Source of the DNA: Candidatus Woesebacteria bacterium
Lineage (GTDB): Bacteria > Patescibacteriota > Microgenomatia > UBA8517
Reading direction: 5' to 3'
Assembly (NCBI GenBank): GCA_016432525.1
Contig: CP066693.1
Span: 614,175-678,174 of the forward strand
DNA length: 64,000 nt
Every line of letters starts with the position of its first letter. Within the stretch, counting starts at the first letter, position 1. Positions 9,340 to 37,292 of this stretch are shown here, piece by piece. The notes beneath the pieces are model-generated. The model did not search any database. It saw only the letters and a list, made by a program, of their open reading frames with translations, and was not told where the DNA came from. The position numbers and the translations under genes were made by a program.

Positions 9340-9342
9340 CTG

Positions 9343-9415
9343 AGCCGATGGGTGGCTTCGAACCACCGACCTCTGCTTTACGAAAGCATTGCTCTACCAG
9401 CTGAGCTACATCGGC
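9343..9415 (-). tRNA. tRNA-Thr (anticodon CGT)
   Basis: Folded by hand. Acceptor stem is gccgatg/catcggc, D-arm is gctc/gagc, anticodon stem-loop is tgct-TTCGTAA-agca, and T-arm is ggtgg-ttcgaag-ccacc. CCA is not encoded. Confidence 0.85.
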
Positions 9416-9434
9416 TTGACCCTAATCTTTGCTG

Positions 9435-9505
9435 AGCGGGATAGGAGAATCGAACTCCCTTCTCATCCTTGGGAAGGACGCATTCTACCGGTGAACTAAT
9501 CCCGC
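9435..9505 (-). tRNA. tRNA-Gly (anticodon CCC)
   Basis: Acceptor stem is gcgggat/atcccgc, anticodon stem-loop is cgtcc-TTCCCAA-ggatg, and T-arm is gggag-ttcgatt-ctcct. Confidence 0.85.
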
Positions 9506-9507
9506 GC

Positions 9508-9546
9508 ACTGTGGCTATATTATATCATTTAGCGCGGAAGTGTGAA
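9508..9546 (-). promoter_or_regulatory. Promoter for the tRNA-Gly/tRNA-Thr unit. It contains an extended -10 TGATATAAT and the conserved 20-bp element ACTGTGGCTATATTATATCA (on +).
   Basis: On the minus strand the -35 TTCACA (9541-9546) is followed by a 16-nt spacer and the -10 TGaTATAAT (9519-9527). The predicted start site lies about 6 nt before the tRNA-Gly 5' end. Confidence 0.55.
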
Positions 9547-10167
9547 GACATTTCCAGAGTGAATAATGTTTGGATTTTTAAGATTATTAGCCTTTGCTAT
9601 TTCTAACCATTTATAACCATCGCCATATGCCCTAACTGCAATTTTCCAAAGATTATCTCCATGGACAACTGTATATGTATTCTCAGTAATCTTTTGATCA
9701 ACATTACCCCCACTTACAACAATTTGACTTGGAGTAGGACTGGGCTCAGTCGTTGATTCAACACTAGGTTCAGGAGTAGGGCTTACCTCAGCAATAATTG
9801 AGGTGCTGGTTGCCTCTGGACTAGAAGACGGTTCTGCTGCTTTAGCGCTTGCTGGTATAGTCAATTTCTGACCAACCTCAATAGTTGATGGATTTTCAAT
9901 ATTATTAGCTTTGGCAATTTCTGACCATTTGAATCCATCATTATAAAACTTTTGTGATATTGACCAAAGAGTATCTCCTTTTTCAACAGTATATTCATTT
10001 GCAGATTCAGTAGTCTGTCCACTTTCAATTGAAGGAGTTGAATTCGATCTTCCTTTAAAAAAGTTTATAACTATAACTCCAATAGCCAGTATCACGAAAA
10101 TTCCTAGAGCCATACTAATTGTAGACTCGTTTAGTTTTAATGCTTTTAAAATAGACTTAAGATTCAT
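9529..10167 (-). CDS. Membrane-anchored protein with two LysM domains (peptidoglycan-binding)
   Basis: The two LysM copies read YTVEKGDTLWSISQKFY...IEVGQKLTIP and YTVVHGDNLWKIAVRAY...IHSGNVFTLP. An N-terminal TM helix and a Ser/Pro/Thr-rich linker are present. Confidence 0.85.
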   Translation of the reverse strand: MNLKSILKALKLNESTISMALGIFVILAIGVIVINFFKGRSNSTPSIESGQTTESANEYTVEKGDTLWSISQKFYNDGFKWSEIAKANNIENPSTIEVGQKLTIPASAKAAEPSSSPEATSTSIIAEVSPTPEPSVESTTEPSPTPSQIVVSGGNVDQKITENTYTVVHGDNLWKIAVRAYGDGYKWLEIAKANNLKNPNIIHSGNVFTLPR

Positions 10168-10365: not shown

Positions 10366-10420
10366 CTCGAAAAATAAAAAACCGAAGGTCTCTGGAAATA
10401 ACAAAGAGTTATCCTTCGGT
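10366..10420 (-). terminator. Rho-independent terminator for the 10466-10786 gene
   Basis: The stem accgaagg...ccttcggt is followed on the minus strand by TTTTTTATTTTT. Confidence 0.65.
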
Positions 10421-10786: not shown

Positions 10787-10863
10787 GTCTTCCTCCCAAA
10801 GTCTATCCAGAGACCTTCTTATTCTATATTTTACAACTTTTTAAGAAATTGACAATCTTTCTA

Positions 10864-10899
10864 AATAAAAAACCGAAGTCTTTTTAAAAAACTTCGGTT
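10864..10899 (-). terminator. Rho-independent terminator for the 10922-11221 gene
   Basis: The stem aaccgaagt...acttcggtt is followed on the minus strand by TTTTTTATTT. The stem sequence is nearly identical to the terminator at 10366-10420. Confidence 0.65.
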
Positions 10900-11291: not shown

Positions 11292-11337
11292 CTCACCCTA
11301 ATTTTTATTAGCAAAAATTTCAAGCTTCGCTTATAAT

Positions 11338-13119
11338 ATGGTAGTGAAGAAAAGTTTAACCAATGTTGAAATTGCAGAACTTCTAAGAGATATTGCCGCT
11401 TCTTACAAACTTAAAAACGAAGCTCAAAATCGTTTCAAAATAGTAGCTTATGAACGTGCTGCAGACTCGGTTGAGCATTTATCATCTGAACTCAAAGATA
11501 TTTGGGATGATAAAAAACTAGATGAAGTTCCTGGTATCGGTAAAAGTATTGCGGATTCTTTAGATGAACTTTTTAGAACTGGTAAATCTTCTCATTTTGA
11601 CTCTCTCTTAAAAGATTTACCCAAAGCCATGTTTGAGCTCATGAAGCTAAAAGGAGTTGGCCCTAAAAGTGCATACAGGCTTGTTACTGAGCTTAAAATT
11701 TCAAACACCAATCCATTTAAAGATTTAGAAGAAAAAATAGCTAAAAAACAAATTGAGAAACTAGAAGGCTTTGGGAAACAATCTCAAGAGGACATTAAAA
11801 AAGCTCTAGAAGAGTATAAAACAGCTAAACCTGCTCGACTGCTTCTTCCGTATGCCAGACAAATTGCAGATGAAATTATTGAATGGATGAATGAAGAAAA
11901 GTCTGTCAAGGAAATTGAAGCTTTAGGTAGTTTAAGGCGCAGTGCTTCAACTATTGGTGATATTGATCTAGCTTCCGCAACAGATAACCCTCAAAAAGTA
12001 ATTGAGAGGTTTGTAAACTACAAAAATAAAGTCAGAACTCTTGAAAAAGGGAATCATTCAGCCTCGATTTTGCTACCTGGAAATATAAGAGTTGACATTA
12101 TGGTCACACAAGTAAACAATTTTGGCTCTCTTCTTCAACATTTTACAGGCTCAAAACATCATAATATTGCCCTTCGTGAGTATGCAATCAAAAAAGGACT
12201 TAGCGTCTCAGATTACGGAATCAAAAGAAAAGAGAAACTATTAAATTTCAAAACAGAAAAAGAATTCTATAACTTTCTAGGACTTGATTATATTCCTCCT
12301 GAACTTCGCGAAGACCAAGGGGAAATTCAAAAAGCTCTTGATCATAAACTTCCTAACCTTGTTGAGATAAAAGATATTAAGGGGGATCTCCAAATTCACT
12401 CTGACTTTGATATTGAAACTAGCCATGATATAGGCCAGTCAAGCATGGAAGAAGTAATAGAAGTAGTAAATAATCTTCATTATGAATATGTAGCTTTCAC
12501 GGAACACAATCCAAGCAAAAGTAAACACAGCGAAAGCGAAATTTTGGACATATTAAAGAGGAAAAAAGAAAAAATAGAAAAAATTAATTACTCGTTAAAA
12601 GAATCTGTGAAAAAAAGAGTAAAGAAAGTTTTCAATAGCCTTGAGATTGATATACTATCAGAAGGAAACCTTCCAGTTTCAGAAAAAGCTCTCGATCTTT
12701 TAGATTTTGCCTTAGTTTCTATTCATTCATCTTTTGATCAAGAAAGAAACAAAATAACAAACCGTATTTTAAGATCCTTTGATAATCCAAAAATAAAAAT
12801 TTTCGCCCATCCAACTGCTCGTATCTTAAATAAAAGAGAAAGCATTAATGTTGATTGGGAAAAAATTTTTGAAAAAGCAAAACAAAAAAACATATACCTT
12901 GAAATTAATGCGGATCCTTCAAGGTTTGATCTCCCTGATATATTAATCCACGAAGCTCTAAAATATGGAGTTAAATTCAGCATGGGGACAGATGCTCACA
13001 ATAAAGAAGGTCTTTATAATATGAAATGGGGAATTTCCGTTGCCCGTCGTGGATGGGTAACAGAAAGTGATATAATAAACACGCTAAGTTTAGAAAAATT
13101 TGAGGAGGTGATTAAATAA
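11338..13119 (+). CDS. polX: DNA polymerase X family protein with a C-terminal PHP phosphoesterase domain (PolX)
   Basis: The N-terminal 8-kDa/HhH domain contains GIGKSIADSL and GVGPKSAYRL. A nucleotidyltransferase core follows. The C-terminal PHP domain has the DLQIHSDFD...GTDAHN motifs. Confidence 0.8.
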   Translation: MVVKKSLTNVEIAELLRDIAASYKLKNEAQNRFKIVAYERAADSVEHLSSELKDIWDDKKLDEVPGIGKSIADSLDELFRTGKSSHFDSLLKDLPKAMFELMKLKGVGPKSAYRLVTELKISNTNPFKDLEEKIAKKQIEKLEGFGKQSQEDIKKALEEYKTAKPARLLLPYARQIADEIIEWMNEEKSVKEIEALGSLRRSASTIGDIDLASATDNPQKVIERFVNYKNKVRTLEKGNHSASILLPGNIRVDIMVTQVNNFGSLLQHFTGSKHHNIALREYAIKKGLSVSDYGIKRKEKLLNFKTEKEFYNFLGLDYIPPELREDQGEIQKALDHKLPNLVEIKDIKGDLQIHSDFDIETSHDIGQSSMEEVIEVVNNLHYEYVAFTEHNPSKSKHSESEILDILKRKKEKIEKINYSLKESVKKRVKKVFNSLEIDILSEGNLPVSEKALDLLDFALVSIHSSFDQERNKITNRILRSFDNPKIKIFAHPTARILNKRESINVDWEKIFEKAKQKNIYLEINADPSRFDLPDILIHEALKYGVKFSMGTDAHNKEGLYNMKWGISVARRGWVTESDIINTLSLEKFEEVIK

Positions 13120-23386: not shown

Positions 23387-23836
23387 TTATTGGCCTACAA
23401 TTCTGGCACGGCCTAGTTCAACTGCCTTTTTAAGTAGTTCTTTGCGACTCAAAAAAAATATTTCTTTATTACCTTCCTTTTTGGCAATTATTAACCCCAG
23501 GATCAATTGTTTAACTGTATTGGCTTCTTGTTTTCTCAAATAATGGAGTGTCAAAGGAGGCATACCAAATATCTTATGATCAATCTCTAGTGAAGCAAAG
23601 ACCATACTATGTTCAATTATCACATTGGAAATATCATCATACGAAAGGCTAGTTACTCTTTCAGATAAGATAAACGGGCGTTTTATTAAACTAACCTTAT
23701 GTCTATCAACAATCAATATAGAAGGTAACAGGTCAAAAGGAAAAATGGATTTAATTTTCCAAAGAACAGCTTCCCCTCTAGTTATTGCCTTGTCAGACTC
23801 ACGAGATTCAAAAATTATCTTTTTTCTGGTTCCCAC
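23387..23836 (-). CDS. Hypothetical protein (149 aa)
   Basis: GTG start preceded by AAGGA. An extended -10 TGATATAAT lies upstream on the minus strand at 23853-23861. No family was recognised. Confidence 0.4.
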   Translation of the reverse strand: MGTRKKIIFESRESDKAITRGEAVLWKIKSIFPFDLLPSILIVDRHKVSLIKRPFILSERVTSLSYDDISNVIIEHSMVFASLEIDHKIFGMPPLTLHYLRKQEANTVKQLILGLIIAKKEGNKEIFFLSRKELLKKAVELGRARIVGQ

Positions 23837-23925: not shown

Positions 23926-23996
23926 TGCACCTGTAGCTCAAAGGCAGAGCATTCCGCTAGATCGGAAGGTTTAGAGGTTCGAATCCTCTCGGGTGC
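23926..23996 (+). tRNA. tRNA-like gene with a canonical acceptor, D-arm and T-arm but an apparent 6-nt anticodon loop (CUAGAU), so the anticodon is unassigned
   Basis: Acceptor stem is gcacctg/cgggtgc with one U-G pair, D-arm is gctc-aaaggca-gagc, anticodon stem ttccg/cggaa is perfect with loop ctagat, variable loop is ggttt, and T-arm is agagg-TTCGAAT-cctct. A candidate -35 TTGACC lies at 23893-23898. Confidence 0.5.
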
Positions 23997-24000
23997 TATG

Positions 24001-33206: not shown

Positions 33207-33826
33207 TTCAAATATTTACGTATAAGCCCAACCATTTTCCCTTGTATTCGGACATTCTTTACAAATATCGGGCTCATTGCTGAATTTGCTGGTTCAAGTC
33301 TGATTCTTGTTGCTTCTTTATAAAACCTTTTCAAGGTTGCCATTCCATTATCCAAAAGTGCTACAACAATATCCCCATTTCTTGCAATTTCAGTTTCCTC
33401 AACAATCACAAAATCACCATCTCTTATTTGCTCTTCTATCATTGACTCTCCTCGAACTTGAAGTACATAAACTCTTTTTGATCCATTCACAAAAGCAGGT
33501 GGAATATCCATAGAAGCATTAGGGTCCTGCATTGGCTCAATTGGAGCACCGGCTGCAATAAACCCAAGTATTGGGACATTGACTACCCTCTCCCCTGATT
33601 CAGCAACAATATCGTTTGTTAAAGTGATCCCTCGATTCTTCCCATGCCTTCTTTTAATTACTCCTTTTGCCTCCAAAGATTCCAAATGTTCATGAACAGT
33701 TGCAAGAGAAGAAACACCAATGCATTCAGCTATCTGTTTTAAGGTTGGAGCATATCCAAAAGCCTGAATATGTTGGTATATAAAATCAACTATCTGTTTT
33801 TGTCTTTTGTAAATTACAGGGGCCAT
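33203..33826 (-). CDS. lexA: LexA repressor
   Basis: A winged-helix N-terminus is followed by the cleavage site at ...AAGAP..., the S24 peptidase Ser (GESM) and Lys (ATLKRF). The track start at 33925 lies upstream of the promoter; the ATG at 33826 gives a 207-aa protein. Its stop overlaps the gpmI stop (shared TTAA). Confidence 0.85.
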   Translation of the reverse strand: MAPVIYKRQKQIVDFIYQHIQAFGYAPTLKQIAECIGVSSLATVHEHLESLEAKGVIKRRHGKNRGITLTNDIVAESGERVVNVPILGFIAAGAPIEPMQDPNASMDIPPAFVNGSKRVYVLQVRGESMIEEQIRDGDFVIVEETEIARNGDIVVALLDNGMATLKRFYKEATRIRLEPANSAMSPIFVKNVRIQGKMVGLIRKYLN

Positions 33827-33839
33827 AACTTTCACTAAC

Positions 33840-33868
33840 AATTTACAAACTTTACCCGAACTTGTCAA
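33840..33868 (-). promoter_or_regulatory. lexA promoter: TTGACA, 17-nt spacer, TAAATT
   Basis: On the minus strand the -35 TTGACA (33863-33868) and the -10 TAAATT (33840-33845) sit about 14 nt upstream of the lexA ATG. Confidence 0.5.
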
Positions 33869-33893
33869 GGGGATATAATATATATAACGCACA

Positions 33894-33913
33894 TTGTGAG
33901 ATTTCTTTTCCAA
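33894..33913 (+). promoter_or_regulatory. Candidate operator motif TTGTGAGATTTCTTTTCCAA. It is shared with the polX upstream region and lies just downstream of a divergent gGATATAAT -10 (33871-33879).
   Basis: The 8-mers TTGTGAGA and TTTTCCAA occur at nearly the same spacing here and at 11273-11291. Confidence 0.3.
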
Positions 33914-34008
33914 TGGGAGATTCAATACCTACAACATATAGAATCGACGTTTCCAACGACCTAGATAAAGCAATGGTTACGGTCAAAAGAGAATTCGCAA
34001 AAGCATAG
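33913..34008 (+). other. Candidate small ORF (31 codons, MGDSIPTTYRIDVSNDLDKAMVTVKREFAKA) or small RNA, transcribed divergently from lexA
   Basis: A + strand -10 TATAAT at 33874-33879 is followed by the operator-like motif and then the ATG at 33913. No Shine-Dalgarno is present, and the ORF ends at a TAG at 34006-34008. Confidence 0.2.
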
Positions 34009-34051
34009 AAAACAAAAAAAGCCTGTTATGACTTATCATCACAACAGGCTT
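34008..34051 (-). terminator. Rho-independent terminator for the 34074-35189 gene
   Basis: The stem aagcctgtt...aacaggctt is followed on the minus strand by TTTTTTTGTTTT. Confidence 0.6.
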
Positions 34052-34073
34052 ACTATTAACAATCAAATTGGGT

Positions 34074-35189
34074 TTACCAAGCTACAAGTAACCTTGAATA
34101 CCAAGCCTGGGCAATCGAATGCAACTTCCAAAAACTAAATCCATCAGACATGGTTATACACAAAGTATACATATCCAAACCTCCAGACTGATAATTTTCT
34201 GGGCATTCGTAAACTATCATCAAATCGTCAGGTGACCAAGAAAGAGGAACACGGGTACTTTCTGTGTGTATCTTCATAACATATGTGCCATCTAGGCTCG
34301 AAACCAACAAAACCCGACCAGCACTATTATTACTAGCCCAACATGCAATTCTCTTTGAGGTATGAGCAAGTATTACATCACCACCCGAACAAGAGTAACC
34401 TTGAATATTAGAGGTTTCTAGTTCTGTCTTTGTTTTTCGACTCACCGAAAAAAGATAGTTAGATGAGCTACTGACTAAAAGCGTATCTGAATCAGACAGC
34501 CATCGTAAATCAGGATTTAAGTCTGGCCCATCCAAAACAACATAGTCCTTTGGAACATGTTCATTGTGAAAATCCAGGTAATCATATGGATATTTACTTG
34601 AATCAAGTTTTACAACAACAACCCAATTGTTAGACCCAAATTCTTGATGTACAAAGGCTAAAAATCTCCCATCTGGTGATACCACTGGAGAAATATTCCA
34701 TGTATCAAAATGCGAGCCACTAACAACCTTATACTCTGAATCTTTAGTTAAATCCTGAACAAAAAGACCAACTCCATCTCCCCTGATCACATCCATCTTG
34801 GAAGTAAGAACCTCATTATTATTTCCAAACCATGTAAAGCCAAGGAAATAATAAACCGGTTTGTAAGTCTTGATCAGGATTCCTTTTTCATCATAAAAAT
34901 CAACGAAGCTGTATTCGCAACATGCAGGAATTACCGCAAGCTTCGTATGGTCAGGTGACCACAAAAGTCGCTCGACATCATGATTTAGAGGTATTCTTAC
35001 TTTGTTTTGTCCACCAGGATCAACGATTTCCAAATAATAGGAATATTTGTTTGAAACAGAATCTTGTAAAACTATCACATATGCAATCCTGTACACTTTT
35101 TCTTGTGCCCAAACTTTGTTAGTTGGTACTTCCACCAAACTTCCCCATACCGTCAGAACCAAGATCAATAGAATAGTTAACCTTTTCAT
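34074..35189 (-). CDS. Secreted PD40/TolB-like beta-propeller repeat protein
   Basis: Signal peptide reads MKRLTILLILVLTVWGSLVEV. Repeated WSPD and SPDGRFLAFV motifs are present. The ATG at 35189 carries a perfect GGAGG Shine-Dalgarno at 5 nt; the track start at 35201 is a TTG. Confidence 0.6.
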   Translation of the reverse strand: MKRLTILLILVLTVWGSLVEVPTNKVWAQEKVYRIAYVIVLQDSVSNKYSYYLEIVDPGGQNKVRIPLNHDVERLLWSPDHTKLAVIPACCEYSFVDFYDEKGILIKTYKPVYYFLGFTWFGNNNEVLTSKMDVIRGDGVGLFVQDLTKDSEYKVVSGSHFDTWNISPVVSPDGRFLAFVHQEFGSNNWVVVVKLDSSKYPYDYLDFHNEHVPKDYVVLDGPDLNPDLRWLSDSDTLLVSSSSNYLFSVSRKTKTELETSNIQGYSCSGGDVILAHTSKRIACWASNNSAGRVLLVSSLDGTYVMKIHTESTRVPLSWSPDDLMIVYECPENYQSGGLDMYTLCITMSDGFSFWKLHSIAQAWYSRLLVAW

Positions 35190-35217
35190 CTCTTCCTCCA
35201 ATTTGATTTGTTAAAGA

Positions 35218-35237
35218 ACTGTGGCTATATTATATCA
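35218..35237 (-). promoter_or_regulatory. Second copy of the 20-bp element ACTGTGGCTATATTATATCA. On the minus strand it reads TGATATAATATAGCCACAGT and provides an extended -10 for the 34074-35189 gene. It lies in the divergent region shared with uvrB.
   Basis: A 20/20 identity with 9508-9527. The -10 TATAAT occupies 35229-35234 on the minus strand. Confidence 0.5.
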
Positions 35238-35282
35238 CTTCTGTCTATTCACTTTCGCTTAAATTTCGGATATTATCAAAGT

Positions 35283-37292
35283 ATGGATCTAAAACTTGTC
35301 ACTAACTACAAATTAACAGGGGACCAGCCCCAGGCTGTCGAAAAACTCGTATCTAATTTAAAGAAAAACCAAAGATATCAAACTCTTTTGGGAGTTACTG
35401 GTTCCGGTAAAACTTTTTCAGTGGCCAATGTAATTGAAAAAACTCAAAAGCCAACCTTAGTTATTTCTCACAATAAAACTCTGGCAGCTCAGCTTTATCA
35501 GGAATTCCGCGACTTTTTCCCACAAAACGCAGTTTCTTACTTTGTTTCTTACTATGATTATTACCAACCTGAAGCATATATTCCTTCAACTGACACCTAT
35601 ATTGAAAAAGATTCAGATGTAAATGAACTCATCGACAAACTTCGCCTTGCTGCAACTACAAATATTCTGACGCGCAAAGATGTCATCGTGGTGGCCTCAG
35701 TTTCTTGTATTTACAATTTAGGCTCTCCCAAGGAATATGGCAATTTTGTGCTTGAATTAACTCCGGGAATGAAAATTCAAAGAGTTCAAATTCTTGACCG
35801 TCTTGCCTCTCTTCAATATGAACGCTCAGATTTTGGTTTCCATAGAGGTACTTTTAGGGTCAGGGGAGATATCATAGATGTTTATCCAGCCTATGATGAT
35901 GTTGGTGTAAAAATCCAACTCTCCGGGGATTACCTCGCTCGTATCGACAAATTCGATCCAGTTTCAGGGCAAACCTTGGAAGAAAATTTAAATTTCTTTA
36001 TTCTTTATCCTTCAAAACACTATGTTACTGATCCAAACAAAAACAAATCTGTGTTTAAACAAATTCAAGATGATTTAAAATTTCAAGTTGAAAAATTTAA
36101 AGACGAAGGAAAGCTTCTTGAGGCAAATAGAATCTCACAAAAGGTAACTTACGATCTTGAGATGATTCAAGAGTTGGGTTACACCAAAGGAATTGAAAAT
36201 TATTCTCGTTATTTTGACGGGAGAGCAGAAGGGGAGCCTCCTTTTACTCTTGTAGATTATTTTAATGAAGCTTATGGCAAAGATTGGCTTTTGGTAGTTG
36301 ATGAAAGCCATATCACTTTTCCACAGGTTAGGGGAATGTACGCAGGCGATAGAAGTAGAAAAGAAACTCTAATTAATTATGGCTTTCGCCTTCCTTCAGC
36401 ACTCGACAATCGTCCCCTTAAGTTTGAAGAATTTATGAGATTGGTTCCAAATTTTGTCGCGGTTTCAGCTACTCCCAGTGAATGGGAAATTTCTATGTCC
36501 GAAGGAAATATTGTAGAGCAACTTGTTCGTCCCACAGGCATTGTAGATCCGCTAGTGGATATTCGTCCGACCCAGACTCAGGTTAAAGATGTAATTGAAG
36601 AAGTAAAACTTCGTGCTAATAAAAAAGAAAGAGTTTTGATAACTACCCTAACCAAAAAAACAGCTGAAGATGTAAGTAACTTTCTCGCAGAGCAAGGCTT
36701 AAACGTTCAATATCTCCACTCAGATGTTAAAACATTAGAACGCACTGATATTTTAGATAAACTTCGTCTTGGTAAATATGATTGTCTGGTTGGAGTAAAT
36801 TTATTGCGTGAAGGTTTGGATCTTCCAGAAGTCTCACTAGTTGCAATCCTAGATGCAGATAAGGAAGGTTTTTTAAGATCTGATGTTTCTTTAATTCAAA
36901 CAATGGGCCGCGCGGCTCGCCACATAGAAGGAAAGGTTATTTTATATGCAGACCAAGTTACAGGATCAATGGATAGGGCATTAAAAGAAGTTAAAAGAAG
37001 ACGTGAATATCAAGTTAGTTGGAATAAAAAGTACAGAATTACTCCCAAAAGTATTCAAAAACCAGTTCGCCAAAAACTTATTGATTTTGAGGCAATTTAT
37101 GAAGAAAAAGCCAAATCCAAATCACGAGTTACATTTTCATCGCTTAATGATATCGATATAGATTCGTTTACTCCAATGCAAAAGAAAAAGCTTGTTATAA
37201 ATCTAAAACGCGAAATGCGCCTTGCAGCAAACGATCTTGATTTTGAGCTAGCAGCAGGAATTAGAGACAAAATCAGAGAAATAGAAATTTAG
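35283..37292 (+). CDS. uvrB: Excinuclease ABC subunit B
   Basis: Helicase motif I reads GVTGSGKT. The beta-hairpin, helicase C domain and C-terminal UvrB/UvrC interaction domain are present. The track start at 35208 is an upstream TTG. Confidence 0.9.
   Translation: MDLKLVTNYKLTGDQPQAVEKLVSNLKKNQRYQTLLGVTGSGKTFSVANVIEKTQKPTLVISHNKTLAAQLYQEFRDFFPQNAVSYFVSYYDYYQPEAYIPSTDTYIEKDSDVNELIDKLRLAATTNILTRKDVIVVASVSCIYNLGSPKEYGNFVLELTPGMKIQRVQILDRLASLQYERSDFGFHRGTFRVRGDIIDVYPAYDDVGVKIQLSGDYLARIDKFDPVSGQTLEENLNFFILYPSKHYVTDPNKNKSVFKQIQDDLKFQVEKFKDEGKLLEANRISQKVTYDLEMIQELGYTKGIENYSRYFDGRAEGEPPFTLVDYFNEAYGKDWLLVVDESHITFPQVRGMYAGDRSRKETLINYGFRLPSALDNRPLKFEEFMRLVPNFVAVSATPSEWEISMSEGNIVEQLVRPTGIVDPLVDIRPTQTQVKDVIEEVKLRANKKERVLITTLTKKTAEDVSNFLAEQGLNVQYLHSDVKTLERTDILDKLRLGKYDCLVGVNLLREGLDLPEVSLVAILDADKEGFLRSDVSLIQTMGRAARHIEGKVILYADQVTGSMDRALKEVKRRREYQVSWNKKYRITPKSIQKPVRQKLIDFEAIYEEKAKSKSRVTFSSLNDIDIDSFTPMQKKKLVINLKREMRLAANDLDFELAAGIRDKIREIEI

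Follow-up and report, generated by a model that had tools for sequence, protein, structure and literature searches.

The exact 20-bp sequence ACTGTGGCTATATTATATCA (plus-strand form), which occurs twice in the window (the whole 64-kb stretch of DNA analysed, from a Candidatus Woesebacteria bacterium), probably represents the core region of two ordinary extended -10 promoters of the sigma-70 type that share no regulator, their activity and transcription starts being predicted. Copy 1 faces a tRNA-Gly(CCC)/tRNA-Thr(CGU) unit and copy 2 faces a gene for a PD40-repeat protein (Table 1). Read on the minus strand, both copies consist of the extended -10 element TGATATAAT followed by an 11-nt extension, ATAGCCACAGT. 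As far as sequence comparison can tell, these remaining 11 bases are lineage-specific and without detectable shared regulatory function.

Table 1. Coordinates of the two copies of the 20-mer, their predicted promoter elements and the adjoining genes
Feature	Position	Strand	Basis or remark
Copy 1 of the 20-mer	9508..9527	-	Predicted core promoter of the tRNA-Gly(CCC)/tRNA-Thr(CGU) unit; exact match and promoter scan
Copy 1 TG	9527-9526	-	Sequence
Copy 1 -10 TATAAT	9524-9519	-	Sequence
Copy 1 11-nt extension	9518-9508	-	Sequence
Copy 1 predicted transcription start (A)	9512	-	Placed 7 nt past the -10
Candidate -35 TTCACA of copy 1	9541..9546	-	Overlaps the 3' end of the LysM gene; promoter scan
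tRNA-Gly(CCC)	9434..9505	-	ARAGORN; Rfam tRNA, 56.8 bits; 5' end 2 nt past copy 1
tRNA-Thr(CGU)	9342..9415	-	ARAGORN, Rfam; 18 nt downstream of tRNA-Gly
LysM-domain gene	9529..10167	-	Pfam LysM, 1.7e-27; stop codon 9529-9531
Copy 2 of the 20-mer	35218..35237	-	Candidate core promoter of the PD40-repeat gene; exact match and context
Copy 2 TG	35237-35236	-	Sequence
Copy 2 -10 TATAAT	35234-35229	-	Sequence
Copy 2 predicted transcription start (A)	35222	-	Predicted position
PD40 Shine-Dalgarno GGAGG	35199-35195	-	Between copy 2 and the ATG at 35189
PD40-repeat gene, 371 aa	34074..35189	-	Weak Pfam PD40 match

A first-pass annotation of this DNA had reported both the exact 20-bp duplication and its minus-strand reading as an extended -10 with 11 further bases, and exact matching confirms the two observations at both positions. 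The 20-mer is the longest exact repeat of the window, the runners-up measuring 18 and 17 nt, and no third site was found in the 64 kb even at three mismatches. Identity ends sharply: a MAFFT alignment of 160 nt around each copy revealed no homology beyond the 20-mer, the extra matches being limited to a G two bases past one end and TT past the other. A larger segmental duplication, which the same annotation had allowed for, is not the case, the flanks being unrelated. The window has a G+C content of 34% and contains only about 2.1 kb of intergenic DNA, within which both copies fall. Counting both copies, it holds 10 TGnTATAAT sites and 86 TATAAT sites.

Copy 1 occupies nearly all of a very short intergenic spacer. 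The LysM stop codon lies 1 nt from the repeat, which makes up 20 of the 23 nt between the LysM gene and tRNA-Gly, and its TATAAT stands 13 nt ahead of the mature 5' end of the tRNA. The tRNA-Thr(CGU) gene is presumably co-transcribed with tRNA-Gly(CCC). A consensus promoter scan at copy 1 returned TTCACA, a 16-nt spacer and TATAAT with the upstream TG, with 11/12 matches. Four relatives (L052, L053, L139 and L140), recovered through PolX homologues of 61-67% identity, keep the gene order Big-domain gene / tRNAs / LysM / ... / polX, and in all four TGnTATAAT is found after the LysM gene and upstream of tRNA-Gly, the promoter reading TGGTATATAAT in one and TGTTATAAT in three. In the three loci where the LysM stop codon is visible (L052, L053 and L140), the element follows directly past it; tRNA-Gly starts 10-13 nt past TGnTATAAT in the relatives, with a distance of about 50 nt in L139. 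Because TGnTATAAT occupies the same gap in four relatives, the copy 1 promoter is conserved in position. The TTCACA hexamer is weakly conserved among them, as is expected of extended -10 promoters, which do not need a -35 element. Additionally, the tRNA-Asp promoters of L052 and L053 also read TGATATAAT; nine bases of the 20-mer thus belong to the consensus that is usual for tRNA promoters in this clade. The proposal that copy 1 is an extended -10 promoter facing the tRNA-Gly/tRNA-Thr unit is thus upheld by the TGnTATAAT element, its orientation and its conservation in the four relatives.

Copy 2 lies within the 93-nt gap between the PD40 start codon (ATG at 35189, minus strand) and that of uvrB (ATG at 35283, plus strand), 36 nt upstream of the former, and its TATAAT is 39 nt ahead of the PD40 ATG. 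It has no recognisable -35, and the promoter scan gives no -35-containing minus-strand promoter here. Sequence context agrees with the earlier description of copy 2 as an extended -10 directed toward the PD40 gene in the region divergent from uvrB. The encoded protein carries a hydrophobic N-terminus that, read by eye, resembles a signal peptide, and a terminator-like hairpin is found 3' of the gene at 34019-34051. A word-indexed protein search with the PD40 protein returned only the identical protein and one partial match of 29% identity, and its best distant relatives are 35-39% identical; the base composition of the gene is not anomalous. Five relatives (L047, L048, L050, L141 and L142), whose UvrB proteins are 74-79% identical to that of the window, keep the order pps-eno-iPGM-...-lexA(-)/uvrB(+)-uvrA-transglutaminase-uvrC. 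Between lexA and uvrB the PD40 gene is absent in all five, and none carries the 20-mer upstream of uvrB. The two genes are directly divergent in L047 and L050 (two of the five), and in L048, L141 and L142 a 119-132-aa open reading frame (ORF), co-directional with uvrB, lies between them. Because the interval is without PD40 in five relatives, the PD40 gene is a lineage-specific insertion. Homology between copy 2 and the spacer that ancestrally separated lexA from uvrB (AGCTATT..ATCAC, seen in L047 and L050) was suggestive by eye and was set aside, having no MAFFT support. As an observation in its own right, the lexA-uvrB spacer (window 33827-35282; L048 9463-10000; L141 2452-3000; L142 2552-3000) is a hot spot for lineage-specific genes.

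In the reading that we favour, the 20-mer would span approximately -15 to +5 of each promoter. It would thus take in the TG and the single base after it, the TATAAT hexamer, six nucleotides of discriminator, the start, and the initial 4-5 bases of the transcript. RNA polymerase holoenzyme would recognise TGnTATAAT without a good -35. Transcription from copy 1 would yield a short-leader tRNA-Gly(CCC)/tRNA-Thr(CGU) precursor that is trimmed afterwards by RNase P, and copy 2 would start a PD40 mRNA that carries the GGAGG ribosome-binding site in a 5' UTR of ~30 nt and whose product is probably secreted. These features match those of the extended -10 sigma-70 promoters of E. coli and many Gram-positive bacteria: in both copies a perfect TATAAT is preceded, at a distance of one base, by a TG, the -35 is weak (TTCACA at copy 1) or absent (copy 2), and the element is oriented to the downstream gene at a suitable distance, with the copy 1 site conserved. 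The sole oddity with respect to such promoters is the identity of the 11 bases past the hexamer.

The first-pass annotation had taken this identity to imply a shared discriminator or operator. In such a reading, the 11 nt would constitute either a binding site or a kinetic element made up of the discriminator and the initial transcribed sequence. Through it the tRNA-Gly/Thr unit and the PD40 gene would be co-regulated, whether in response to growth rate or, say, by a repressor specific to the lineage and acting on the start site. The exact identity of 11 otherwise unconstrained bases speaks for such control, as do the agreement between the limits of the 20-base identity and those of RNA polymerase contact and a low promoter-aware probability of chance (~1e-3). 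However, the orthologous tRNA-Gly promoters of the four relatives lack the 11-mer; there the bases past TATAAT read actcttcaaaa, accgctatatat, aattctcaat and aagcgaaagtt...; none resembles ATAGCCACAGT, and the 10-13 nt are wholly different. Nor does the extension recur: it follows none of the 84 other TATAAT sites in the window and none of the eight other TGnTATAAT sites. The roughly 17 kb of this genome that were read outside the window (L134 and L136) contain no further copy, so that an operator of this type would have two sites within the ~81 kb scanned of a genome of ~0.92 Mb, and none was found in about 150 kb from the relatives' loci. At up to two mismatches the 11-mer is not enriched in the window (15 sites vs 9.85 expected from shuffles), and within the window's intergenic DNA its constituent 7- and 8-mers are confined to the two copies. 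That every other promoter should lack the extension had been named beforehand as an outcome that would count against shared control, and it holds across the sequence scanned.

Structural considerations point the same way. Dimeric regulators use dyad or direct-repeat sites, but neither ATAGCCACAGT nor the whole 20-mer displays, by eye, any such symmetry beyond an AT-only TATA-A-TATA. The stringently controlled rrn promoters of E. coli possess GC-rich discriminators. Copy 1 is like the stable-RNA promoters of the E. coli rrnB P1 type in being a short-leader tRNA promoter whose shared bases cover the discriminator and start, but its discriminator is AT-rich (ATAGCC, beginning with ATA) instead of GC-rich and differs among orthologous tRNA-Gly promoters. 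There is also no obvious functional tie between tRNA-Gly/Thr and a secreted beta-propeller protein. Neither copy matches an Rfam family, and the segment ATAGCCACA bears a weak resemblance, at 7/9 positions by eye, to TTATCCACA, which we take to be the DnaA-box consensus. Lacking conservation, symmetry, and recurrence in the ~81 kb and the relatives, the 11-mer is improbable as a shared operator or discriminator. A young, lineage-specific operator would escape this comparison, because the nearest relatives are distant (UvrB 79%, PolX 65-67%).

The location of copy 2 raises the alternative that the 20-mer acts on the plus strand, as an UP-like element or a LexA-related site for uvrB. A distance of 10 nt separates copy 2 from the uvrB -35 downstream of it, and the word TATATTATATC occurs exactly three times in the window, at both copies and just upstream of the lexA -35 (33872-33882, minus strand). 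But copy 1, read on the plus strand, points into the 3' end of LysM, where there is nothing for it to regulate; an AT-rich element of this kind is missing between the -35 boxes of lexA and uvrB in the relatives; and the conserved candidate for a LexA operator has another sequence and is situated within the -35/-10 spacers. We therefore consider a plus-strand role very unlikely. The more specific notion that the 20-mer is itself a LexA box, prompted by the neighbouring lexA, uvrB, uvrA and uvrC genes, was rejected, the clade motif being outside the 20-mer. The lexA-proximal word also forms a perfect 11-nt inverted repeat with part of copy 2, GATATAATATA / TATATTATATC (33872-33882 and 35226-35236), which brackets the PD40 insertion. 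This pairing is at chance level, and its interpretation as terminal inverted repeats of the insertion was likewise discarded because the same 1.5 kb contains three perfect 11-nt inverted repeats.

The candidate LexA operator of the Woesebacteria clade is of separate interest. It is a direct repeat, TTCG-N7-TTYGG (also written TTCG-N7-TTCGG or TTCG-N7-TT(T/C)(C/T)GG), with sites in the window at 35254-35269 (plus strand, uvrB) and 33846-33860 (minus strand, lexA). The motif is carried in the -35/-10 spacer of the uvrB promoter in seven genomes (that of the window, L047, L048, L050, L054, L141 and L142), and the spacer of the lexA promoter (TTGACA...TAAATT) carries a related TTCGGGT-N4-TTnn in six genomes; a metagenome UvrB scan returned mostly distant loci (~52-60% identity), L054 alone being useful. 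For lexA, the ATG at 33826 (minus strand; MAPVIYKRQKQ...) is the probable start: it yields an N-terminus like that of the relatives' proteins and keeps the conserved TTGACA-17-TAAATT promoter upstream, whereas the alternative TTG starts at 33925 (mechanical ORF) and 33868 (Logan gene call) would bury the promoter in the gene. The candidate operator resembles the direct repeat GTTC-N7-GTTC that has been reported as a LexA motif of Alphaproteobacteria (PMC8565304).

Two same-orientation repeats 25.7 kb apart, one of which abuts a tRNA gene, might also suggest attL and attR sites of an integrated element, or a mobile or segmental duplication that they delimit. However, the intervening 25.7 kb hold polX, gatCAB, dnaE, rplS, ruvC, pps, eno, iPGM and lexA and contain no integrase or other mobile-element gene. 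Relatives without the repeat have the same gene order, the repeat lies on the 5' side of the tRNA instead of at the usual 3' end, and no homology flanks it. The syntenic housekeeping genes and the missing integrase rule out an att-bounded genomic island, and recombination or mobile-element ends are, as a class, extremely improbable. A 17-mer of the repeat was also sought in 185,579 GTDB genomes, from which the source species is evidently absent. The 28 hits were scattered and single, came from unrelated taxa with no Candidate Phyla Radiation (CPR) bacteria among them, and included the full 20-mer once, in Ruminococcus; in viral contigs the 17-mer gave 16 scattered hits, none with the full 20-mer. 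These GTDB and viral matches are at chance level.

How surprising the shared 11 bases are depends on how the comparison is framed. The earlier value of about 1 in 4 million does not stand, as it is a per-pair figure that presupposes uniform base composition and ignores multiple comparisons. An exact repeat of at least 20 nt, for example, appears in 5-7% of Markov-simulated windows of the same composition, and a 37-kb sample of a related genome contains a chance 20-mer common to two unrelated coding regions. When intergenic stretches were shuffled, 0/200 trials reached 20 nt, the largest repeat being 16. Across 3655 TATAAT pairs in the window, identity past the hexamer decays ~0.37-fold per base; it extends to 14 in the pair formed by copies 1 and 2 and to 9 in the next-best pairs. 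For a 20-mer with both copies at promoters, a fair chance figure is thus of the order of 1e-3 to 5e-3 per window. Random sequence alone does not account well for the repeat, but in a scan of many windows it is not rare enough for chance to be dismissed.

For the origin of the identity, the re-use of a short promoter patch is a reasonable possibility that falls short of being probable; most simply, the tRNA-Gly promoter would have been copied to PD40 in connection with the PD40 insertion. The appeal of this idea is that PD40, a recent arrival at its locus, had need of a promoter. We know of no well-established mechanism for copying a 20-nt patch. A coincidence between two strong promoters in an AT-rich and very compact genome is a tentative explanation, of some doubt but real weight. 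The recent promoter duplication that the first-pass annotation had offered as its own alternative is possible, and is not separable from coincidence. The sharp end of the identity at the limits of RNA polymerase contact would also fit selection on all 20 bases. A reading that combines copying with selection, in which a portable "minimal promoter cassette" (-15 to +5) moved from the tRNA-Gly promoter to the newly inserted surface-protein gene and was kept identical because its discriminator, start and early bases tie both units to a common growth-linked control, strikes us as distinctly unlikely.

Promoter duplications have been surveyed on a larger scale. Putative mobile promoters were defined by at least 50 nt aligned at >=80% identity upstream of non-homologous genes, and exact repeats of >25 nt are quoted as a usual significance guideline (Matus-Garcia et al., Nucleic Acids Res 2012, PMC3488235). 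The present case is similar in that an identical promoter precedes two non-homologous units in one genome, one of which (PD40) is new to the lineage, but at 20 nt and with no flanking similarity it reaches neither that definition nor the guideline.

Several other features of the window and its relatives merit mention. Some genes look leaderless, with a -10 that ends 6-8 nt ahead of the start codon and no Shine-Dalgarno sequence; these include uvrB in 7/7 genomes (window 35271-35285), lexA in L047, and polX (window 11332-11346), where TATAAT-ATGGTA-GTG precedes a 591-aa NCBI protein that starts at the GTG. The 723-nt rplS-ruvC gap, which measures ~50-200 nt in relatives, accommodates a 149-aa ORF of unknown family (23387-23836, minus strand) and a tRNA-like gene (23927-23997, plus strand; Rfam tRNA, 54 bits). 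The latter has a 6-nt anticodon loop, CUAGAU, containing CUA, is assigned no anticodon by ARAGORN and is followed by a strong terminator-like hairpin. Two minus-strand terminator-like elements (10372-10387 and 10863-10878), one upstream of tRNA-Asp and the other after a 99-aa ORF, share the 16 bases CTTCGGTTTTTTATTT, the second-longest word common to intergenic regions, as well as a 13-nt complementary stretch. Among the relatives, assembly GCA_040960095.1 contains two Woesebacteria versions of one syntenic region (L048 and L139/L142) on JBFOMS010000011.1 and JBFOMS010000014.1 (750 kb and 688 kb), with UvrB proteins 77% and 74% identical to that of the window, and seems to hold more than one genome. 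Finally, a 21-nt piece of tRNA-Thr (TACCACTGAGCTACCCTGGCA, plus strand) is repeated 50 nt away in L053 (3602-3672), which suggests a partial tRNA duplication beside the gene.

The broader significance of the repeat varies with its interpretation. A shared operator would define a tiny lineage-specific regulon, and a copy event would illustrate, on a small scale, how an existing promoter is re-used for a gene that has just been acquired; the evidence favours neither strongly. A cassette retained under common control would imply promoter capture at a scale of ~20 nt, far below the reach of promoter-propagation surveys. If, as we favour, the two copies are ordinary promoters, their resemblance would matter little in itself. 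To our knowledge, promoter architecture in CPR bacteria is almost unstudied because these organisms are uncultivated, and in that respect the finding would be modestly useful: it would indicate that Woesebacteria transcribe tRNA genes from extended -10 promoters (TGnTATAAT), which are packed into gaps down to 23 nt.
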